64,000 bases of DNA from sequence record NC_054909.1; one strand, given 5' to 3'. The notes below the pieces were generated by a model, which was given only the letters and a program-made list of their open reading frames with translations, made no database searches and was not told where the DNA came from. Shown one piece after another: positions 1,867 to 38,554 of this stretch. This DNA is from Escherichia phage EC121. A program made the position numbers and the translations under genes. Each line of letters starts with the position of its first letter. The first letter of the stretch is position 1.

Positions 1867-2721
1867 TCACAATGAAGAAAATTCTTTAACTAAAGCCTGT
1901 AATGAAGCCTCTATTGGATATCCATTCTTAACTAACATTTTCCTAAACATTACATGTTTAGGACGATTATATGATATCCACAATTCATACAATTTATCTT
2001 TATTATCCCAATGATAGCCTTTTCGTCGAGATGCTATATGAGCTTTTCTAATCTCCGGATTTTTCCAACTAGCAGCTACTGAATTTGATATAGCTATTTT
2101 ATATTCAGGTTTTGATAAAGCAGCACGAACAGCCTTTTGGTGTTTAATTTTATTTTCTTCGTTATTAAACCATTCCCTTGAAGCCATTGAAATTTTTTGT
2201 TTTGTTTTAAAATTATTTAATCTTTCTTTATTATCTTTCCTATTTTTTGCTACTGAAAAATATTTTAATGCCCTTTCTCTAGCAGCATTTCTATTTTGCG
2301 GATTTGAATAATACTGTTGAAGCCTTTTTGATATTGTGTCACTTACATCTTGTTTTATAAAACTATATTCAGCAGCTATTAAATCAACTTCGGCTAAAGA
2401 TAAATTTTTATATGTTTTTCCTGACATCATTCTATTTAAAGCATTTAACATTTTTCCATTTTTACCTTTTGCTAATAAGAAGTGTGCTTTAAAATGATTA
2501 AAATGACTTAAATTAACTAAATTCCATGTAGATTTTAAATATTCAGGAAATATTGATTTAGGAAGCACGTGGTGTGCTTCCGTTTTACCTGGAGTTTTAA
2601 CAGTTGAATTCACAGAAATAAAATTAATGTAAGACTTGGCGTCTTCTTCACTCAACGCTAATTTTTCAACTAATTCCTTTATTAAAAATTCATCATTAAT
2701 GTCAAGTTTAAAATTCTTCAC
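1867..2721 (-). CDS. free-standing HNH-family homing endonuclease (mob-like)
   Basis: 284 aa; HH..N..H motif (AHHVLPKS...NLVNLSHFNHFKAH) followed by basic NUMOD-like repeats. Confidence 0.75.
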   Translation of the reverse strand: MKNFKLDINDEFLIKELVEKLALSEEDAKSYINFISVNSTVKTPGKTEAHHVLPKSIFPEYLKSTWNLVNLSHFNHFKAHFLLAKGKNGKMLNALNRMMSGKTYKNLSLAEVDLIAAEYSFIKQDVSDTISKRLQQYYSNPQNRNAARERALKYFSVAKNRKDNKERLNNFKTKQKISMASREWFNNEENKIKHQKAVRAALSKPEYKIAISNSVAASWKNPEIRKAHIASRRKGYHWDNKDKLYELWISYNRPKHVMFRKMLVKNGYPIEASLQALVKEFSSL

Positions 2722-2981
2722 AAAAGATTCCTTTTAATGTATCTTTTAGACCATTCTATCATATCATCATAATCTAAAAAGTATTCATCAAATTCAGCCA
2801 TGCAAACAACACCTTGTGCTGCTTTTGATGTGATATAAATTATTCCAACATATCTAGAATCTTCTTCGGTATAATCAATATTTGCTATGAATTCATCGTT
2901 AATGTCAAATGTCGAAAACTTCACAATATGCATCCTTAATACAAGATACAGCCATATCTTGTAATGATTTAGGTGTGTCAT
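2718..2981 (-). CDS. hypothetical small protein; true start probably internal
   Basis: ORF with stop overlapping HEG start; N-terminal segment shares DINDEF motif with the HEG. Confidence 0.45.
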   Translation of the reverse strand: MTHLNHYKIWLYLVLRMHIVKFSTFDINDEFIANIDYTEEDSRYVGIIYITSKAAQGVVCMAEFDEYFLDYDDMIEWSKRYIKRNLL

Positions 2982-3168
2982 TATCTAAAATGTTGAAGTT
3001 AAAAGATACAGCCCAGTCAGTGCAGACCGTAACCTTTTTAATACAATTATCTTCAACCTCTAGCGGTTCAAACCAATATTCAATAATTTCTTTATGCCCA
3101 ATATCATCTTTTACTTCGCATTCAAAATGCTGACTCATCATAACATTTTTAAATTCATCAAAAGTCAT
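2905..3168 (-). CDS. hypothetical protein (87 aa)
   Basis: ORF whose start overlaps gene 47 stop by 4 nt. Confidence 0.55.
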   Translation of the reverse strand: MTFDEFKNVMMSQHFECEVKDDIGHKEIIEYWFEPLEVEDNCIKKVTVCTDWAVSFNFNILDNDTPKSLQDMAVSCIKDAYCEVFDI

Positions 3169-4184
3169 TGTGTTGCCTCTACATATAGCTGATTCGCATA
3201 TTGAATAAGTGCTTCACGGTCAGAATCAGTGATGTCTGGAATTGCATTAATGTATTCTTCCATCAACGTCTGAAGAGATTGAACTTCAACTTCTTCACTG
3301 TCATCTGACTCGACAGAGTTATCAATCTTTGACACAACTCGTAACGAATGCACAACTTTTTCTAGTTCAGATTCGAACTTCGTCAGATTTTTGTCTACTT
3401 CAGTTACTATAACACGTACTGATAGATTTGTAAAATCTTTATAGTCAATTTTTCCCTTAAATGGATATTGAATTCGACGATGCCAGGTAGTGTTGTTTGG
3501 AATAAATTCCATTCGTTCTGTTTCTGTGTCAAACATCCAGAACCCACGAGGGTCATTCTCGTCACCTGCAGTTAGTGTCCATGGTGTCCCAATATATCTG
3601 ACGTTTGCAGCCTCAGAAATAGTATGGAAGTGACCAGACCACACTTCTTTATAAGTCTTAAGGAAATCAGGTTCAAGACCGTGAGATTTCATTCCTTTAT
3701 AAAAATAAAATCCATTCAGTTCCCAGTGACCAACACAAAAAGAAGCAGATGAAGTTTTGATGTGTTCAAGAATTTCACCAGTATTTTCTTCGCACATCCA
3801 AGGAATTAAATCAATCAAACACCCGTCAAAATCTACTGTTGTAGGCTTATCATATACTTTAACATTAGGATATTTAGCCAAAAGCTCAGTAGAGGCATTT
3901 GGATGCATTACATTTTTGTAGTGGAGATCGTGATTTCCTACAATAGTATGTAGGGTAATACCAGCACCATCAAGCATTTGAACTATTTCACGGGCAAACT
4001 CCATAGTTTTATGCGTGATCGCTTTTCGCACATCAAAAATATCACCGTATTGAATCCATACCGTAATTCCATTTTTCTTAGAATATTCTATCGCTTGCTT
4101 AATTCCATCAATTTGAATACCGCGAATCCACTCATCATCAGCTTTAACGCCTAAATGCCAATCACCTAAATTTAAAATTTTCAT
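3165..4184 (-). CDS. 47: recombination nuclease subunit gp47 (Mre11/SbcD-like phosphoesterase)
   Basis: 339 aa; calcineurin-like motifs GDWH, GDIFD, GNHD; adjacent to gene 46. Confidence 0.95.
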   Translation of the reverse strand: MKILNLGDWHLGVKADDEWIRGIQIDGIKQAIEYSKKNGITVWIQYGDIFDVRKAITHKTMEFAREIVQMLDGAGITLHTIVGNHDLHYKNVMHPNASTELLAKYPNVKVYDKPTTVDFDGCLIDLIPWMCEENTGEILEHIKTSSASFCVGHWELNGFYFYKGMKSHGLEPDFLKTYKEVWSGHFHTISEAANVRYIGTPWTLTAGDENDPRGFWMFDTETERMEFIPNNTTWHRRIQYPFKGKIDYKDFTNLSVRVIVTEVDKNLTKFESELEKVVHSLRVVSKIDNSVESDDSEEVEVQSLQTLMEEYINAIPDITDSDREALIQYANQLYVEATQ

Positions 4185-8954: not shown

Positions 8955-9278
8955 TTAGTCTTCTATGATATCTCTATCATATCCAAGTGAAATGAGAGTT
9001 TCTTTGAAGTGTTTAATGTTCTTTTGTCTAGAATCATTAATGAAAATGACTGGATAACGAATGTTAAGAGATGTAAATCCAGCGCGTTTAGCAAGAGATA
9101 CAATCAGTGGACGATCATACTCGATCTTACCATTATTTGTAAGAACTTTATAGAAAGTAAAAGGAGCATTGAGCTCCTTTAGAAGTTTTGTAACTGATTG
9201 ACATCCAGGACAACGACCAACTTCATCTGGAATTCCATAGACTTCAATCTTATTCTTTAAGTTCGAGTTTTGTTCCAC
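8955..9278 (-). CDS. NrdH/glutaredoxin-like redoxin (CPGC active site)
   Basis: thioredoxin-fold motif VYGIPDEVGRCPGCQ; no in-frame ATG after upstream stop, GTG at 9278 with AAGGAA RBS proposed. Confidence 0.55.
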   Translation of the reverse strand: MEQNSNLKNKIEVYGIPDEVGRCPGCQSVTKLLKELNAPFTFYKVLTNNGKIEYDRPLIVSLAKRAGFTSLNIRYPVIFINDSRQKNIKHFKETLISLGYDRDIIED

Positions 9279-9561
9279 GAGAAATAATTCCTTGATAAGC
9301 CCAATATGGCGGGTTAACAGAATCATCGCCAGAATTTTCTTCAGGAAAATAAACCTGGATAACAAATCCAGATTCATCAAAGGTAAAATAAACCGTAGGT
9401 AATTCACCTAACAATTCAGCACGATTATTAATTTCTTCGAGTTCTCGTTCACGTCCGGCCCAAAAACTAGGATTTAGACTACATTCATAGAAATAATAGT
9501 CATTACCGAACATATCAAAACCATTCCAACTCTCTACCACATACCGCTCAAAACTAATCAT
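9250..9561 (-). CDS. hypothetical acidic protein (103 aa)
   Basis: minus-strand ORF. Confidence 0.55.
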   Translation of the reverse strand: MISFERYVVESWNGFDMFGNDYYFYECSLNPSFWAGRERELEEINNRAELLGELPTVYFTFDESGFVIQVYFPEENSGDDSVNPPYWAYQGIISRGTKLELKE

Positions 9562-9563
9562 AA

Positions 9564-9779
9564 TTAAGCCTTTTTATCAAGAACAGCATTCAGTTTGCTA
9601 GTAATTTTATCCAGACGCTCATTGAACTCGCTAGAAGACAGTCCTTTTTCTGGAGAAATCAAACTAATCACGAAAAATATAGCAATAAAAGGAATAAGGA
9701 AAATAGCTCCAACTGCCATAAACAGAAAGAATGTTACAGTTGTAAGAAAATCAGCTAAACCTTTACGAAATTTATACAT
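9564..9779 (-). CDS. hypothetical small membrane protein (71 aa)
   Basis: single hydrophobic helix FLFMAVGAIFLIPFIAIFFVISLI. Confidence 0.55.
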   Translation of the reverse strand: MYKFRKGLADFLTTVTFFLFMAVGAIFLIPFIAIFFVISLISPEKGLSSSEFNERLDKITSKLNAVLDKKA

Positions 9780-9894
9780 ATTTTACCCTTAATTGATTAA
9801 CCAAGCATTGATAAGCACTAAACTATACTGTGAATAAAATTCTGGACCAAAATGAAAAATCATATCATTTATAGTATCCATAATATAATTCAAT

Positions 9895-10365
9895 TTAATC
9901 ATGTTTCCACACCCCATCGGTATTTGACCAAAGTCGCTGATTATCTGATCCTCGCCACAGCTTTTTAGTCGGAAGATTTTTCTCATACTTCCCATCAATA
10001 ATAACATCAACATATTTAAGCATTTCTAGTTGTTTAATATCTTCAAACTTATATCCTGTCCACAACCAAATGCTTTTATTTGGATAAAGATTTTTTACTG
10101 TTTGAACAATGCAATGAACAGCATCTCGGTTATCAGGATAGAGAGGGTCTCCTCCAGTTATAGTTAATCCTTCTATATAATCGTTATTCAAACATTCAAT
10201 TAATTGTTCCAGCGTTTCACCAGTGAATGGAACACCATTTCTAGCATTCCATGTTGATTTATTATAACACCCTTCGCATTTATGCAAACAACCTGTAACG
10301 AAAAGAACGACCCTGCAACCAGGGCCATTCACAAAGCAGCACGGGTATATTCTGTCATAATTCAT
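9895..10365 (-). CDS. nrdG: anaerobic ribonucleotide reductase activase NrdG (radical SAM)
   Basis: CxxxCxxC motif CLHKCEGC; 156 aa from ATG at 10365. Confidence 0.9.
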   Translation of the reverse strand: MNYDRIYPCCFVNGPGCRVVLFVTGCLHKCEGCYNKSTWNARNGVPFTGETLEQLIECLNNDYIEGLTITGGDPLYPDNRDAVHCIVQTVKNLYPNKSIWLWTGYKFEDIKQLEMLKYVDVIIDGKYEKNLPTKKLWRGSDNQRLWSNTDGVWKHD

Positions 10366-11192
10366 AATAATATCCAATTTTTCCAAGCTTCATCAGTAGA
10401 ATTACAGCGTTTTAGTATAAGATGTCTAGAAACTTTTATGGCATTTGAGCACTTTTTAATTGAATCATATTTAATACCGTCAACTGAAACGGTTTTGCTA
10501 GTTGGAGAAATTTTTCCATACATTGGATTTTTTGAACCAACTTGAAGTCCTTTTAAAGCTTTTGAAAGCTTTTGTCTAGATTCCAATGACATGGGAGAAT
10601 TCTTTTTACCTTCAATAATTCGCTTGCGATGAAGTTCGCGTTCTTCTTCACTCAAAGAATTGTAATATTTTTTAACACCGTTTGATATAGATAATTTATC
10701 TTTCTCAGACCGCTCTCCAGCTAATTTACTTCTAACATCTTTTCGCTTCATAGCTATGCTTACGGCTTTATTTAAATTTGCTTGATGCTCTGGCGTACGT
10801 TTATATTTCTTTAAAGCACGTGAAATAGCTATTTTAGTTTCTTCTGTTCTCTTTTTACCTTTATTTGCTAAACTATTTTTGCGGCGATGTTCAAGTGTCT
10901 GTTCATAGGCAGTTCCACCTTTTCCACCAGGTTTAATATTATATGTATTTTCTTTTAGACAATACTCTTCGGTTACAAGTTCAGCTTCTTTATCATACAT
11001 TTGTTTTTCATTATCAAAAACATGTAAAATTTCTTTATTAAAATTTTTTCTACCATATTTTAATAAAGCGGCACGAATCAATGTTCCTGACCCCATATAA
11101 CCGTCATTTATGTTATCGGTGCTATGCGCACCGATATATTCCTTTGAATTAATTATATTTGTTATTTTATAAATTATATAATACCTATGCAT
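10362..11192 (-). CDS. free-standing GIY-YIG homing endonuclease
   Basis: N-terminal YIIYKITN...KEYIGA GIY-YIG module, C-terminal NUMOD3-like basic repeats; overlaps nrdD stop and nrdG start. Confidence 0.8.
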   Translation of the reverse strand: MHRYYIIYKITNIINSKEYIGAHSTDNINDGYMGSGTLIRAALLKYGRKNFNKEILHVFDNEKQMYDKEAELVTEEYCLKENTYNIKPGGKGGTAYEQTLEHRRKNSLANKGKKRTEETKIAISRALKKYKRTPEHQANLNKAVSIAMKRKDVRSKLAGERSEKDKLSISNGVKKYYNSLSEEERELHRKRIIEGKKNSPMSLESRQKLSKALKGLQVGSKNPMYGKISPTSKTVSVDGIKYDSIKKCSNAIKVSRHLILKRCNSTDEAWKNWILL

Positions 11193-13002
11193 GTTTTACT
11201 CGTTTTACCATTTCTTTCATTTTACCTAAATTCCATGGAACAACGCTAGGAGTTCCAAGATATCCGCATGTTCTTCTTATTGTGTTCATCTTTTTAGGAT
11301 CAGTTTCTCCACAAATAGAACAAACAAACCCGTTTTCAGTAGGAGTCATTTCATGGGTACTTCCGCATGTAAAACACTTATCTACTGGCATGTTAACACC
11401 AAAATAATCTAAATGTTGTGCAGCATAATCCCACACGGCCTCAAGACCTTTTAAGTTATTTTTCATATCAGGAAGTTCAACATAAGAAATGTGACCACCT
11501 GTCGCAATGAAATGATATGGCGCTTCACGAGAAATCTTTTCAAACGGAGTAACATTTTCTTCTACTGAAACGTGGAAACTGTTAGTGTACCAGCCTTTAT
11601 CAGTAACATCCTTTACACTTCCATATTTTTCTGTATCAAGTTTACAGAAGCGATAGCAAAGGTTTTCAGCAGGAGTAGAATACAAGCTAAAAGCAAAACC
11701 AGTTCTTTCAGTCCACTGTTTAAGATGAGCATTCATTTTAGTTAAAATTTCTTGTCCAATATCACGACCGACAAGAATATTCAATTCGTGAATACCAATG
11801 TATCCCAAAGACACTGAACTTCTACCGTTTTTAAATAACTCAATTATGTCGTCATCAGGTTTAAGACGAACCCCAAATGCACCTTCTTGGTAAAGAATAG
11901 GAGCAACAGTAGCTTTAACTCCTTTTAAGGAACTAATTCTACACATCAAAGCTTCAAAACACAAATCCATTCGCTCATTGAATAATTCAGTAAATTTCTG
12001 TTCATTGAATTGTGTTCCAATATAAGAATCTAACGCAATACGAGGAAGATTCAGTGTTACAACACCAAGATTATTACGTCCATCAAGAATTTCATTACCA
12101 GTCGAATCTTTCCATACGCTCAAGAAACTACGGCAACCCATTGGAGAAACAGGAACAGATGAACCAGTGATAGCTTTATTGTTCTTAGCTGAAATAATAT
12201 CAGGATACATCCTTTTGCTTGCACACTCTAAAGCAAGCTGCTTAATATCATAGTTCGGATCGTCTTTATAAAGATTAACACCTTCTTCAACGAACATAAC
12301 AAGTTTAGGGAAAATAGGAGTTATCCCATCACGACCAAGACCTTTAATACGATTTTTCAGAATTGCTTTCTGAATCATTCGTTCAGTCCAGTCAGTTCCC
12401 GTACCAAATGTAATTGTTACAAAGGGTGTTTGTCCGTTTGAACTAAAGAGAGTATTTACTTCATATTCATAAGCTTGGAATGCATCGTATACATCTTTTT
12501 CTGTTTTAGATTGAGCATAATTCAATGCATCAGCGATTTGCCATTTTTCTGCATCCTCAATATGTTTTGCATAGGTGCGTTTAACATAAGGAGAAAGTAC
12601 TTTATCTACATTAGCAAAAGTCGTTCCGCCGTATTGGTGGGAAGCAACCTGTGCAGTAATTTGTGCCATAATTGCAGTAGCAACGCCAATTGATTTAGGA
12701 GTTTCAATCTGCGCATTACCTAGCTTAAATCCGTTCTCAAGCATTCCTTTTAAATCTACTAAACAACAATTAGTAAATGGAAGAGCAGGGGAATAATCAA
12801 TATCATGGAAATGAATAATTCCGCTTTCATGCGCTTTCATAATAAAAGACGGGACCATATTTTTGGCAATGTGTTTAGACACAATACCAGCCATAAGGTC
12901 CCGTTGAGTTGGAAAAACACGAGAATCTTTATTAGCATTCTCGTTCAAAAGGTCTTTATTAGTTTTATGAATCAATCCTTCAATTTCTTTTTCAATTGTC
13001 AT
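11185..13002 (-). CDS. nrdD: anaerobic ribonucleoside-triphosphate reductase NrdD (glycyl radical enzyme), uninterrupted
   Basis: 605 aa; C-terminal glycyl radical motif RRTCGYLG and Zn-ribbon CFTCG...CSIC. Confidence 0.95.
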   Translation of the reverse strand: MTIEKEIEGLIHKTNKDLLNENANKDSRVFPTQRDLMAGIVSKHIAKNMVPSFIMKAHESGIIHFHDIDYSPALPFTNCCLVDLKGMLENGFKLGNAQIETPKSIGVATAIMAQITAQVASHQYGGTTFANVDKVLSPYVKRTYAKHIEDAEKWQIADALNYAQSKTEKDVYDAFQAYEYEVNTLFSSNGQTPFVTITFGTGTDWTERMIQKAILKNRIKGLGRDGITPIFPKLVMFVEEGVNLYKDDPNYDIKQLALECASKRMYPDIISAKNNKAITGSSVPVSPMGCRSFLSVWKDSTGNEILDGRNNLGVVTLNLPRIALDSYIGTQFNEQKFTELFNERMDLCFEALMCRISSLKGVKATVAPILYQEGAFGVRLKPDDDIIELFKNGRSSVSLGYIGIHELNILVGRDIGQEILTKMNAHLKQWTERTGFAFSLYSTPAENLCYRFCKLDTEKYGSVKDVTDKGWYTNSFHVSVEENVTPFEKISREAPYHFIATGGHISYVELPDMKNNLKGLEAVWDYAAQHLDYFGVNMPVDKCFTCGSTHEMTPTENGFVCSICGETDPKKMNTIRRTCGYLGTPSVVPWNLGKMKEMVKRVKHA

Positions 13003-13472
13003 TTTAAACTCTTTCTAAGCTGCTTCTTGAATGAAGCTATTAATTGTGTTTTGGTGTCAGATTCATTATATTCAAATCCTCTTTGAAGCATCTCGGCCAT
13101 CATTTCCTCTTTTCCTAAACGAGAAAATTCCTTTGATTTATCTCCAACGAAGTTAGGGTGAATATTATTTTGGGTGTAATCGGATTTTAAATAAGTAAGT
13201 AAATTTTCTAACCATTCAAGATAATCAACACCTTGTCCCTTTAAGCCAGAACGATTAAATTTATGCTTCATTTGACCTTCTGCGGCATTGCAGAGATTAC
13301 AAAGCAATCCACGTACCTTTCCTGCTTTTGGTCCATTTAATTCATGGTCATGGTCGAGGTGATTAGCTTGAACGTCAGGATTTAGTTCTCGTTGGCAAAT
13401 TAAGCATTTACCATTTTGTGCATCATAAAATTTCTGTTTTTCTTCTTTGTATAATTTGCCAGTCAATAACAT
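12999..13472 (-). CDS. 49: recombination endonuclease VII (Holliday junction resolvase)
   Basis: 157 aa; Zn-binding CLIC...HLDHDHELNGPKAG...CNLCN. Confidence 0.9.
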   Translation of the reverse strand: MLLTGKLYKEEKQKFYDAQNGKCLICQRELNPDVQANHLDHDHELNGPKAGKVRGLLCNLCNAAEGQMKHKFNRSGLKGQGVDYLEWLENLLTYLKSDYTQNNIHPNFVGDKSKEFSRLGKEEMMAEMLQRGFEYNESDTKTQLIASFKKQLRKSLK

Positions 13473-13515
13473 AATAAAACCCTTACCTTAAATAGATAAG
13501 GGTATTTATTATTTT

Positions 13516-14019
13516 TCAAGTATTGTAAAACATTTGATGCAATCGCTTATATTGCTGAATCATTCGGTCAGAAAAAGAAATTTGAGTTTCAAGCCATTCA
13601 ATGTATTCTGCGGCAGCTTGCATCAGGTTACCTTCATAGCCATCGTTATTTTCTTGCGCAGCTAATTTAGCTAATGCGTATGAAATACGTTCACCTTGAA
13701 AATCGGCTTTAGGCTTCTGAACAACTTGATTAGTTCGCTCTACAACTTCTTCAATTTCGCCATTTTCGACTGATTCAGTATTCCATAAGCACCAATACGT
13801 AATTGACTTATCATAGATATTAATAATCTTTCCGTCGGAAAGTTCAATTTCAATAATTCCAGTATCAGGCTCTATATCATCTTCACATTCTTTTGCAAGT
13901 TCACGAACTTTAAAGACAGTACCTGCACTAAGTTCCGGCCAGTAATTACACAGCCCTGTATCAGCACGATTAATTCTAAACCACTTATCTACTGTAATCA
14001 TGTCCCATCTCCATATCAA
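13516..14019 (-). CDS. hypothetical protein (possibly Pin-like by position and length)
   Basis: 161-167 aa ORF following gene 49. Confidence 0.5.
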   Translation of the reverse strand: MIWRWDMITVDKWFRINRADTGLCNYWPELSAGTVFKVRELAKECEDDIEPDTGIIEIELSDGKIINIYDKSITYWCLWNTESVENGEIEEVVERTNQVVQKPKADFQGERISYALAKLAAQENNDGYEGNLMQAAAEYIEWLETQISFSDRMIQQYKRLHQMFYNT

Positions 14020-14124: not shown

Positions 14125-14445
14125 TTATAGCGTAATCCATTCTCGTACTGTCTGAGTTACTACACGTTCATGGGGCTCGACTAGTTCAACAGTCGGAACT
14201 GCATAATACCAGTCAGAATGATAAGAACCTGACCGAGATTCATTTACCGCTACATGTACGTTATGTTTTGGACTAAAATAAACACACTGACGATATTGAC
14301 ATTTGCCGTCTTGTACCCAGTCTTCTATTTCGACAGGTTTAAGATAATCGGAAAAATCGAAATCATAGTTTTCCGAAAATGCATCATGGTCTTCAATGAT
14401 TTCGCTCAGAACTGCATCAACATCTAATTTATTTTCAATAGTCAT
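14125..14445 (-). CDS. hypothetical acidic protein (106 aa)
   Basis: minus-strand ORF. Confidence 0.55.
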   Translation of the reverse strand: MTIENKLDVDAVLSEIIEDHDAFSENYDFDFSDYLKPVEIEDWVQDGKCQYRQCVYFSPKHNVHVAVNESRSGSYHSDWYYAVPTVELVEPHERVVTQTVREWITL

Positions 14446-37538: not shown

Positions 37539-37614
37539 TGGTCGAGGCAGTAGGGATCGAACCTACGACCCAGGACTTAGAAGGTCCTTGCTCTTCCTTC
37601 TGAGCTATGCCCCG
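37539..37614 (-). tRNA. tRNA-Arg (anticodon TCT), CCA encoded
   Basis: manual cloverleaf: acceptor CGGGGCA/TGCCTCG, anticodon loop CTTCTAA, T-arm GTAGG-TTCGATC-CCTAC. Confidence 0.75.
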
Positions 37615-37618
37615 TAAT

Positions 37619-37694
37619 TGGGGTGACCGATGGGAGTCGAACCCATGACTACGAGAATCACAATCTCGAGTTCTACCAACTGAACTACGGCCAC
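37619..37694 (-). tRNA. tRNA-His (anticodon GTG), CCA encoded, no encoded G-1
   Basis: acceptor GTGGCCG/CGGTCAC, discriminator C, anticodon stem CGAGA/TCTCG loop TTGTGAT. Confidence 0.65.
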
Positions 37695-37808
37695 ATTAAT
37701 ACCTACTCCAACAATCATGATGTCTTCACACGAAATTAAGAGAAGAGTGATCAGTTCAACCCCTATAATCGCGTCAAGTAGATATTAATGTGACAGTTGT
37801 CACAAATT

Positions 37809-37883
37809 TGGCGGACGTGATAGGATTCGAACCTATAACCAATCGCTTAACAGGCGATCGCTCTGCCATTGAGCTACACATCC
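37809..37883 (-). tRNA. tRNA-Asn (anticodon GTT), CCA encoded
   Basis: acceptor GGATGTG/CACGTCC, anticodon loop CTGTTAA, T-loop TTCGAAT. Confidence 0.7.
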
Positions 37884-37887
37884 AAAT

Positions 37888-37974
37888 TGGTGGGGAGTGA
37901 TGGAGTCGAACCACCCGAGTCGCAATGACAATGAATTTACAGTCCACACCGCTACCTCTACGGGATAACTCCCC
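37888..37974 (-). tRNA. tRNA-Tyr (anticodon GTA), long variable arm, CCA encoded
   Basis: acceptor GGGGAGT/ACTCCCC, anticodon loop CTGTAAA, 87 nt type II. Confidence 0.6.
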
Positions 37975-37981
37975 CTTAATT

Positions 37982-38056
37982 TGGTGGCCCTGGGTGGAAT
38001 TGAACCACCATCTGGCGATTATGAGTCGCTTGCTTGAACCTTCCAGCTACAGGGCC
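37982..38056 (-). tRNA. tRNA with CAT anticodon (Ile-lysidine type or Met), CCA encoded
   Basis: acceptor GGCCCTG/CAGGGCC, anticodon arm CGACTCATAATCGC as in Ile2-type tRNAs. Confidence 0.7.
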
Positions 38057-38057
38057 T

Positions 38058-38133
38058 TGGTGCTGATTGACGGAATCGAACCGCCGACATCCTCATTACA
38101 AGTGAGGTGCTCTACCTACTGAGCTAAATCAGC
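38058..38133 (-). tRNA. tRNA-Thr (anticodon TGT), CCA encoded
   Basis: acceptor GCTGATT/AATCAGC, anticodon stem CCTCA/TGAGG loop CTTGTAA. Confidence 0.75.
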
Positions 38134-38138
38134 AAAAC

Positions 38139-38228
38139 TGGCGGAGGCGATAGGATTTGAACCTATGAGTCGCCGGAGCGACTGCCGGTTTTCAAGACCG
38201 GTGCATTAAACCACTCTGCCACGCCTCC
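38139..38228 (-). tRNA. tRNA-Ser (anticodon TGA), long variable arm, CCA encoded
   Basis: acceptor GGAGGCG/CGCCTCC, anticodon stem CCGGT/ACCGG loop CTTGAAA, 90 nt. Confidence 0.75.
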
Positions 38229-38230
38229 AG

Positions 38231-38304
38231 TCTCCATACAAGGATTTGAACCTACGACATTCTGCTCCCAAAGCAGACGCTCTACCAAACTGAGCTACAC
38301 GGAG
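38231..38304 (-). tRNA. tRNA-Pro (anticodon TGG), no encoded CCA, 2 nt from tRNA-Ser
   Basis: anticodon stem TCTGC/GCAGA loop TTTGGGA; acceptor CTCCGTG/TATGGAG with wobble pairs. Confidence 0.65.
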
Positions 38305-38314
38305 TAAATTAAAT

Positions 38315-38388
<74 letters not shown>

Positions 38389-38393
38389 AAATT

Positions 38394-38480
38394 TGGTGCG
38401 AGAAGTGGGACTCGAACCCACAAGGAAATAATTCCGCAGCATTTTAAGTGCTGTGCCTTTACCAATTTGACCATTCTCGC
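38394..38480 (-). tRNA. tRNA-Leu (anticodon TAA), long variable arm, CCA encoded
   Basis: acceptor GCGAGAA/TTCTCGC, anticodon stem CAGCA/TGCTG loop CTTAAAA. Confidence 0.75.
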
Positions 38481-38481
38481 G

Positions 38482-38554
38482 CTGGGAATAAAGGACTCGA
38501 ACCTTTGCATCTAGCAGTCAAAGTGCTATGCCTTACCAACTTGGCTAATTCCCA
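38482..38554 (-). tRNA. tRNA-Gln (anticodon TTG), no encoded CCA, 1 nt from tRNA-Leu
   Basis: acceptor TGGGAAT/ATTCCCA, anticodon stem TAGCA/TGCTA loop CTTTGAC. Confidence 0.7.

Follow-up and report, generated by a model that had tools for sequence, protein, structure and literature searches.

The ORF between nrdD and nrdG of an intron-less Tequatrovirus is very probably segH, which encodes a free-standing GIY-YIG homing endonuclease

What is the 276-aa open reading frame (ORF) that lies between nrdD and nrdG in the 64,000-nt stretch of DNA analyzed here (the window): a product of an intron in nrdD, a decaying remnant, or a free-standing mobile gene that may carry parts of its neighbors with it? 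The best explanation, which we regard as highly probable, is that the ORF is segH, a GIY-YIG homing gene of a Tequatrovirus without the nrdD intron, and that it would spread between phages by homing into the nrdD/nrdG boundary. No evidence against the identification as segH was met in this analysis. The gene in the window is not new, as segH is already known, named, and annotated in many sequenced phages. It was reportedly described in 2005 by Sandegren, Nord, and Sjöberg as a free-standing GIY-YIG homing endonuclease gene; in the literature that we searched, discussion of SegH consists of reference-list entries and a one-sentence summary in the Edgell review.

The ORF between nrdD and nrdG

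The features of the locus are as follows, with the basis of each assignment in parentheses.

9895..10365, minus strand: nrdG, anaerobic reductase activase (radical SAM), 156 aa from the ATG at 10365 (Pfam, annotated homologs)
10336..10365, minus strand: recoded nrdG codons 1 to 10, travelling with segH (T2 mismatch map, comparison of N termini)
10362..11192, minus strand: segH, predicted free-standing GIY-YIG homing endonuclease gene, 276 aa, 831 nt (ORF, homology, profiles)
11185..11269, minus strand: segH-associated variant nrdD 3' end (megablast break, T2 mismatch map, tail comparison)
11185..13002, minus strand: nrdD, class III (anaerobic) ribonucleotide reductase large subunit, 605 aa (one ORF, Pfam)
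12464..12467, minus strand: empty site matching the insertion point of the T4 nrdD group I intron (I-TevII) (BLAST split against T4)
12999..13472, minus strand: gene 49, endonuclease VII, upstream neighbor of nrdD (Pfam Endonuclease_7 and Endonuc-dimeris)
13065..13090, minus strand: MotA-box and -10 motif, inside the 3' end of gene 49 (pattern search)

The gene order 49-nrdD-segH-nrdG is identical in T6 and RB3; in the window, all four genes lie on the minus strand. The segH ATG (11192-11190) starts 8 nt inside nrdD, whose TAG stop codon lies at 11187-11185; this junction reads aaacATGCATAGgt, and the overlap of the nrdD stop with the segH start is ATGCATAG, which confirms the 8-nt overlap given in a preliminary description of this DNA. 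At the other end, the segH stop codon TGA (10364-10362) and the nrdG ATG (10365-10363) have the bases TG in common, and the junction reads ttattATGAattatgac. The same description gave a 2-nt overlap with nrdG; the figure stands for the bases common to the stop and start codons, but counted by CDS coordinates the two genes share 4 nt (ATGA), as in the T6 annotation. The nrdG product matches Pfam Fer4_12 (E = 1.4e-48) and Radical_SAM. In the ORF listing, nrdG is extended to an upstream TTG at 10386; all homologous records begin at the ATG.

The protein encoded in the window is 100% identical in amino acid sequence to RB3 SegH (ABI48949.1, AY262138.2), and its match to the homing endonuclease family phrog_314 has an E value of 2.4e-60. 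At the DNA level, segH of the window is 100% identical to that of F2, EC128, SP21535, CE1, and N2, 99.9% identical to that of RB3, 99.8% to that of LZ2, and 99.0% to that of T6, whose record annotates the counterpart as segH; PP01 segH also falls within 99 to 100%. In RB3, LZ2, and T6 (AY262138.2, AY262139.2, and MH550421.1), the same gene occupies the same site and overlaps its two neighbors in the same way (8 nt and ATGA), and we found no substantive difference from the window other than the surrounding genome, which is that of a different Tequatrovirus isolate (over its first 25 kb, the window has its best match at approximately 97% identity and 96% coverage). Counterparts of segH are mislabelled “segD” in the records of RB3 and RB5 to RB10 and “hypothetical protein” in others. 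No SegH paralogs were found elsewhere in the window by tblastn.

The junction is polymorphic at one exact site, which is empty in T2, holds mobC in T4, and holds segH in the window; segH takes the place of the T4 HNH gene mobC. Of the approximately 890 nrdD-carrying phage records, 71 have segH and 32 have mobC at this site. Like SegH, MobC is encoded at the nrdD/nrdG junction by a gene overlapping both neighbors; unlike SegH, it is a 210-aa putative member of the HNH family without detectable similarity to SegH. The Edgell review gives the activity of T4 MobC as not determined. HNH/Mob membership was also considered for SegH itself and rejected, with no Pfam HNH match and a BLASTP E value of 0.55 against T4 MobC.

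nrdD and the empty intron site

That nrdD of the window is a single continuous 605-aa ORF, as described previously, is borne out by the ORF listing and by a match of NrdD to the whole Pfam NRDD profile (1-562/562, E = 2.6e-171); Gly_radical was matched as well. The gene is 97 to 98% identical to nrdD of T6, RB3, and T2. The earlier statement that T4 differs in this respect was correct, as T4 nrdD is annotated as a two-piece join around a 1,033-nt group I intron that holds I-TevII. BLAST against T4 splits at 12464-12467, with 1,033 nt extra in T4, and over 66 nt around the insertion point the window equals intron-less T2 base for base, so that alignment to the T4 exon junction reveals an empty site and no cryptic intron. 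Rfam searches found no group I intron in 9000-14000 (E ≤ 1) and none anywhere in the 64,000 nt at the gathering score, whereas the same search recovered the T4 nrdD intron as a positive control (105.3 bits, E = 1.3e-27).

The 276-aa ORF is not intron-encoded, as no Rfam intron is present and both flanking coding regions are overlapped. The Rfam results, the identity to T2, and the intact segH together support the earlier proposal of an intron-less allele with a free-standing endonuclease at the junction. With the nrdD intron in only 27 of the approximately 890 records, intron-less nrdD is the norm. Further, EC128, F2, and SP21535 carry both the intron and a segH 100% identical to that of the window; hence, the intron and segH are independent of each other rather than alternatives.

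Domain layout and relatives of SegH

As judged from its sequence, SegH is predicted to have three parts: a GIY-YIG domain at the N terminus, helical repeats of the NUMOD3 type in the linker, and, at the C terminus, a helix-turn-helix DNA-binding domain like that of I-TevI. The GIY-YIG assignment made previously is upheld by the N-terminal 98 aa, which on their own pass PF19835 SegE_GIY-YIG (31.1 bits, cutoff 25, E = 3.1e-7), although the full-length protein stays under the Pfam GIY-YIG cutoff (18.6 versus 25) and the score of the N-terminal 98 aa against PF01541 (16.6 bits) is below the cutoff of 22.6. The motifs IIY (6-8) and YIG (19-21) are visible in the sequence. The NUMOD-like repeats noticed earlier are also real, comprising one NUMOD3 copy that Pfam scores as significant (residues 200-228; 33.8 bits against a cutoff of 20.4) and approximately four degenerate [ST]xE....[ILN][SN] repeats recognized by eye at residues 99-107, 116-124, 133-141, and 162-170. 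A profile of four sequences (A1) searched against the PDB matched 1I3J, the I-TevI DNA-binding domain (E = 2.6e-7), and did not reach the I-TevI catalytic domain; a phmmer search with SegH returned no more than chance-level matches from the PDB sequences. Against PF20987, SegH of the window scored 21.1 (below 27) and a 47 to 50%-identical KLB3 homolog scored 41.3. With 50.2 bits over residues 7-274 (E = 3.3e-13) against a cutoff of 56.05, SegH is related to TIGR01453 (group I intron endonuclease) and, by the NCBI cutoff rule, is not a member. E69 and N85 do not vary among the members of alignment A1, and R40 is K in the other members of A1 and Q or H in the KM16/LH2 alleles; no conserved catalytic Arg was identified in A1 or in these alleles. 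A single-sequence AlphaFold2 model was unusable (mean pLDDT 43.1, pTM 0.19).

Compared with I-TevI, I-TevII, and the Seg proteins, SegH of the window is identical to SegH of RB3 and shares features with each of the others. I-TevII is likewise a GIY-YIG enzyme of the same host gene (30% identity over 128 aa, pairwise E = 4e-6), but it is intron-encoded and located at nrdD nt ~536 instead of the 3' end. I-TevI, encoded by the td intron (DNA-binding domain structures 1I3J and 1T2T), has a layout like that of SegH, with GIY-YIG domain, NUMOD3 linker, and helix-turn-helix; it differs in being intron-encoded, the SegH linker is longer and has several NUMOD3-like repeats, and the catalytic domains of the two were not matched to each other by sequence search. 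In tblastn, free-standing T-even GIY-YIG enzymes of the SegD/SegB/SegC type have N-terminal domains 40 to 60% identical to that of SegH, and SegD of phage PST is 29.5% identical to SegH over 91% of the length. However, SegD, SegB, and SegC belong to other loci and have other presumed targets, with the true segD lying between genes 23 and 24.

All five segH alleles compared are 831 nt long with a single terminal stop, and dN/dS is 0.11 for LH2 and 0.17 for KM16, which shows that segH is intact and under purifying selection. A degenerate pseudogene had been considered at the outset, and the full-length window copy and these ratios speak against it. In PD112, by contrast, segH has decayed, with an internal deletion of approximately 577 nt and an out-of-frame remnant of approximately 242 nt.

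Conserved sequence around segH and its maintenance

Conservation does not stop at the ends of the ORF. Blocks without mismatch to the window extend over 11280-10319 in EC128 and 11328-10331 in F2; identity over 11200-10401 is 100% to F2 and 99 to 100% to FL18, a Mosigvirus whose flanks are only 80 to 95% identical. Overall, the cassette occurs in three genera, with 99 to 100% identity in Tequatrovirus and in Mosigvirus and 92% in Moonvirus, and its conservation above that of its flanks in these genera fits recent homing.

On the nrdD side, the conserved block replaces the last 22 NrdD codons directly after the glycyl-radical motif: the TCGYLG codons are silently recoded, and a different 22-aa tail follows, which is TPSVVPWNLGKMKEMVKRVKHA in the window versus NPNERGFNLGKNKEIMHRVKHQ in T2 and T4. 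The tail of T4, a mobC carrier, is accordingly of the T2 type, unlike that of the window. The longer motif preceding the replaced tail is RRTCGYLG, its codons silently recoded. Megablast matches to segH-less phages end at nrdD nt 1754 of 1818, and nrdD differences from T2 are concentrated at 11269-11218, with homology ending at 11210. On the other side, the first 30 nt of nrdG contain eight differences from T2, D10C among them. The segH-type NrdD tail occurs at ≥99% identity in 75 records, approximately the number of segH carriers, and seven records carry a tail between 80 and 99% identical. Outside segH carriers, the closest tails among the matches listed are 79.5% identical, and no donor lineage is found among these matches, in a search ranked by coverage that hid segH-less Moonvirus relatives from view.

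It is possible, and we suggest it tentatively, that the mobile unit is a cassette of approximately 930 to 1,000 bp that overwrites the last 22 NrdD and first 10 NrdG codons, rather than the segH ORF alone, and that the site recognized by SegH lies within the recoded flanks. The cassette would then be partly protected against SegH, and each homing event would put a chimeric C terminus on the essential radical enzyme NrdD. SegH is reported also to cut DNA of segH-carrying phages, in which case the recoded flanks would not confer full self-immunity. The cassette reading may in large part already stand in the 2005 paper.

How segH is expressed can be outlined from sequence motifs. A MotA-box/-10 pattern of the T4 middle-promoter type has 19 matches in the window versus 4.5 expected and none in segH; the match at 13065-13090, which precedes the nrdD start codon by 63 nt, is a candidate promoter for an nrdD-segH-nrdG transcript. 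No late-promoter TATAAATA was found in the locus, and a sigma-70 promoter scan, which returned fewer sites than expected, was uninformative. As segH lacks a promoter motif of its own, it is probably cotranscribed with nrdD. Ribosomes that re-initiate at the 8-nt overlap would probably translate segH weakly, and nrdG translation may re-initiate at the ATGA overlap; in T2, the same coupling would join nrdD directly to nrdG. In a mixed infection, SegH would cut the nrdD/nrdG region of a segH-less coinfecting phage, and recombinational repair templated by the segH-carrying genome would copy in segH and flanking sequence, so that the converted tract would comprise the variant last 22 nrdD codons and first 10 nrdG codons together with segH.

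Such spread need not be purely selfish. Alternatively, segH may be kept mainly because it benefits the phage, by cutting the nrdD/nrdG region of competitors, excluding their markers, and spreading its own neighboring genes. Purifying selection on segH, its persistence at one site in three genera, and a 47%-identical SegH homolog encoded immediately after nrdD in a Slopekvirus would all agree with this, and a 2026 paper reports that T6 SegB aids immune evasion, which shows that Seg enzymes can be useful to a phage. However, carriage by just 71 of the records with nrdD and the decay in PD112 fit a selfish cycle of gain, decay, and loss. We therefore consider a main role in phage benefit unlikely, and it supplements homing instead of replacing it.

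The two remaining explanations deny that segH is a functioning free-standing gene. An inactive, decaying remnant, or pseudogene in the making, has a known precedent at this very locus in PD112, but it is very improbable for the window, where the copy is full length and encodes a protein identical to RB3 SegH, and divergent alleles stay in frame with dN/dS well below 1. We give almost no credence to a cryptic intron in nrdD or to segH as an ORF left behind by an intron once located at the nrdD end: the T4 nrdD intron does encode a GIY-YIG enzyme, I-TevII, that is distantly SegH-like, but neither locus nor window gives a group I intron signal in a search that works on T4, NrdD is collinear with its T2 counterpart and matches the Pfam model over its full extent, and the overlap of segH with both neighboring coding regions leaves no room for an intron RNA structure.

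With segH named and characterized in 2005, and with this allele encoding an identical protein, the gene carries little weight as a discovery, and the “segD” and “hypothetical protein” labels on segH records can be corrected. The locus is nevertheless a clear textbook case in which unrelated selfish elements, the I-TevII intron, the HNH gene mobC, and the GIY-YIG gene segH, compete for one gene pair. All stages of the life cycle of segH are present in public genomes, from the empty site in T2, through the intact gene in the window, T6, and RB3 and its cross-genus occurrence in FL18 and KM16, to decay in PD112.

The nrdD-nrdG junction and the identity of its ORF

Gene 49, nrdD, a 276-aa ORF, and nrdG follow one another in that order in the window, all on the minus strand:

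12999-13472, minus strand: gene 49, endonuclease VII, with Pfam Endonuclease_7 and Endonuc-dimeris (T4 endonuclease VII dimerisation) matches
11185-13002, minus strand: nrdD, 605 aa, matching the complete Pfam NRDD model (1-562/562, E 2.6e-171) and carrying a glycyl-radical domain
10362-11192, minus strand: segH, the 276-aa ORF, named from its identity to annotated segH genes
ATG at 10365, end at 9895, minus strand: nrdG, with Pfam Fer4_12 and Radical_SAM matches

The start ATG of the ORF lies 8 nt within nrdD, read as aaacATGCATAGgt, and its TGA stop has two bases in common with the nrdG ATG, read as ttattATGAatt. (ORF calling extends nrdG up to a TTG at 10386; annotated homologs all use the ATG.) These coordinates and the two overlaps confirm the preliminary description, which had placed the ORF between nrdD and nrdG and overlapping both.

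No group I intron was found with Rfam in positions 9000-14000 at a permissive threshold or across the whole 64-kb window at the gathering score, and the same search of the T4 locus, used as a positive control, recovered the nrdD intron (105.3 bits, E 1.3e-27). Aligned to the window, T4 has 1033 extra nt, I-TevII included, between window positions 12467 and 12464, and over the 66 nt spanning the T4 insertion point the window is identical to the intron-less phage T2. The preliminary statement that T4 nrdD carries an intron with an endonuclease ORF is right, and the proposal of an intron-less allele here is borne out: no cryptic intron is seen in the alignment to the T4 junction.

By sequence identity, the 276-aa gene is segH. 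Over the 3.6 kb that run from gene 49 through nrdG, the window is ~98% identical to T-even phages, and the annotation of the middle gene reads "segH: SegH homing endonuclease" in PP01 and "segH" in T6. The 831-nt gene is 100% identical to that of F2, EC128, SP21535, CE1, and N2, 99.9% to AY262138.2 (phage RB3, "SegH, homing endonuclease"), 99.8% to AY262139.2 (LZ2), and 99.0% to T6, and its protein is 100% identical to RB3 SegH. The interpretation as a free-standing endonuclease beside an intron-less nrdD is supported, and the element is not new but the previously described and widely annotated segH. SegH reportedly has endonuclease activity near its own locus, is said to cut the DNA of carriers and non-carriers alike, and is also said to home in mixed infections. 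The RB3 and RB5-RB10 records (KM606994-KM606999, NC_025419) label the nrdD/nrdG gene "segD" despite 99.9% identity to segH; the gene properly called segD sits between genes 23 and 24, and the label is an annotation error spread through databases.

Extent, intactness, and proposed expression of the cassette

The conserved cassette reaches beyond the segH ORF. Matches to segH-less phages end at nrdD nt 1754 of 1818. Against T2, a mismatch cluster at 11269-11218 precedes the loss of homology at 11210, and homology returns exactly at the nrdG ATG, with 8 further differences within nt 1 to 30 of nrdG and a D10C substitution in NrdG. NrdD retains RRTCGYLG with silently recoded codons and ends in TPSVVPWNLGKMKEMVKRVKHA in place of NPNERGFNLGKNKEIMHRVKHQ. 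This segH-type tail occurs at an identity of at least 99% in 75 records, close to the count of segH carriers; among the matches listed, the tails that come next reach no more than 80% identity, so that no donor lineage is visible among them.

In 200-nt bins, positions 11200-10401 are 100% identical to F2 and 99 to 100% identical to FL18 (Mosigvirus), and identity drops to 80 to 95% in the flanking bins, a pattern read as a signature of mobility. Zero-mismatch blocks span 11280-10319 against EC128 and 11328-10331 against F2. In KM16 (Moonvirus), segH is 91.9% identical and the whole locus 80%. A terminator-like hairpin at 10305-10330 (minus strand; 11 pairs, 6 of them G-C, then a T-rich run) lies 35 to 60 nt within nrdG, where the zero-mismatch block has its right-hand edge; it is probably native to nrdG, since T2 shares the opening 12 nt of the stem.

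All full-length segH alleles examined have 831 nt and one terminal stop, and dN/dS values of 0.11 (versus LH2) and 0.17 (versus KM16) indicate that SegH is under purifying selection. We therefore reject the possibility that segH is a degenerate pseudogene. One decayed copy was found, in Escherichia phage PD112:

PD112 locus, about 2501-2743: out-of-frame segH remnant of ~242 nt, left by an internal deletion

The deletion removes ~577 nt, equal to window positions 11053-10477. In PD112 the NrdD tail is still of the segH type and the start of nrdG is intact; in its record nrdG is annotated too short, the gap carries no label, and a "homing endonuclease" is annotated directly upstream of nrdD, the expected place of gene 49.

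No T4 late-promoter motif was found in the locus and no MotA-type middle-promoter motif within segH; a MotA-type motif does occur 63 nt upstream of nrdD (13065-13090), and the window holds more matches to this pattern than expected (19 versus 4.5). On these grounds segH looks like a promoter-less cassette that would share the transcript of nrdD and depend on re-initiation for its translation, an arrangement described for several T4 free-standing endonucleases in Edgell's review.

Domains and relatives of SegH

Residues 1 to 98 alone match PF19835 (SegE-type GIY-YIG) at 31.1 bits (cutoff 25; E 3.1e-7), a match diluted to 18.6 bits with the full-length protein; IIY (6 to 8) and YIG (19 to 21) are visible. 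Of the candidate catalytic residues, E69 and N85 do not vary in an alignment that joins SegH with a Klebsiella-phage homolog, SegD, and I-TevII; R40 is replaced by K in the other members and is not conserved among segH alleles. The NUMOD-like repeats noted previously were recovered mid-protein as one significant NUMOD3 (33.8 bits) and several degenerate copies. The profile of this alignment matches the I-TevI DNA-binding domain (1I3J; E 2.6e-7), and SegH matches phrog_314 (homing endonuclease; E 2.4e-60) and, over residues 7 to 274 and just below the NCBI cutoff, TIGR01453 (group I intron endonuclease; E 3.3e-13). Similarity to I-TevII is weak (30% over 128 aa), and T4 MobC, an HNH protein, shows none. 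A single-sequence AlphaFold2 model had a pLDDT of 43.

Genomic surroundings and distribution

Three further features belong to the FL18 locus and the wider window:

Escherichia phage FL18 locus, 2409-3077: 669-nt ORF in which Pfam detects NUMOD3 motifs (30.3 bits)
9250-9561, minus strand: 103-aa ORF between gene 55.8 and nrdH, with no Pfam match
37542-38554, minus strand: 10 clustered tRNA genes, each exceeding the Rfam gathering score

FL18 has no nrdD between gene 49 and segH. The 669-nt ORF found there instead has a GIY-YIG-like N terminus (..VYKLSF..YYYIGSKT..) and forms an in-frame fusion with the final 22 codons of the segH-type nrdD tail; at this position nrdD seems to have given way to a second endonuclease-like gene, with nrdG still present. 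Small ORFs around the locus are mosaic in presence and absence: positions 9201-9600 are present in EC128, F2, SP21535, FL18, and PD112 and absent from T4, T2, and T6, and positions 14201-14400 are present in T4 and T2 and absent from T6, EC128, and SP21535. As T4 has 8 tRNA genes, the tRNA cluster may be expanded here. A weak ohsC_RNA match (Rfam) at 13471-13544 (minus strand; 28.4 bits versus a gathering score of 50, E 0.28) is most likely due to chance; it lies immediately upstream of gene 49 and overlaps a terminator-like hairpin (13479-13503).

Among 892 phage-collection records with an nrdD match, 71 carry segH, 32 mobC, and 27 the nrdD intron. In T2 the junction is empty, and nrdD and nrdG overlap directly in ATGA. 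The intron and segH are independent, since EC128, F2, and SP21535 have both, with a segH 100% identical to that of the window. A more distant homolog (47 to 50% identical) occurs in a Klebsiella Slopekvirus:

Klebsiella phage vB_KM5a1-KLB3 locus, 2959-3810: SegH homolog, 283 aa, with a ribosome-binding site of its own

Between this gene and nrdG lie two small ORFs. The homolog sits directly downstream of nrdD, so that in distant genera too SegH-like genes are associated with the 3' end of nrdD.
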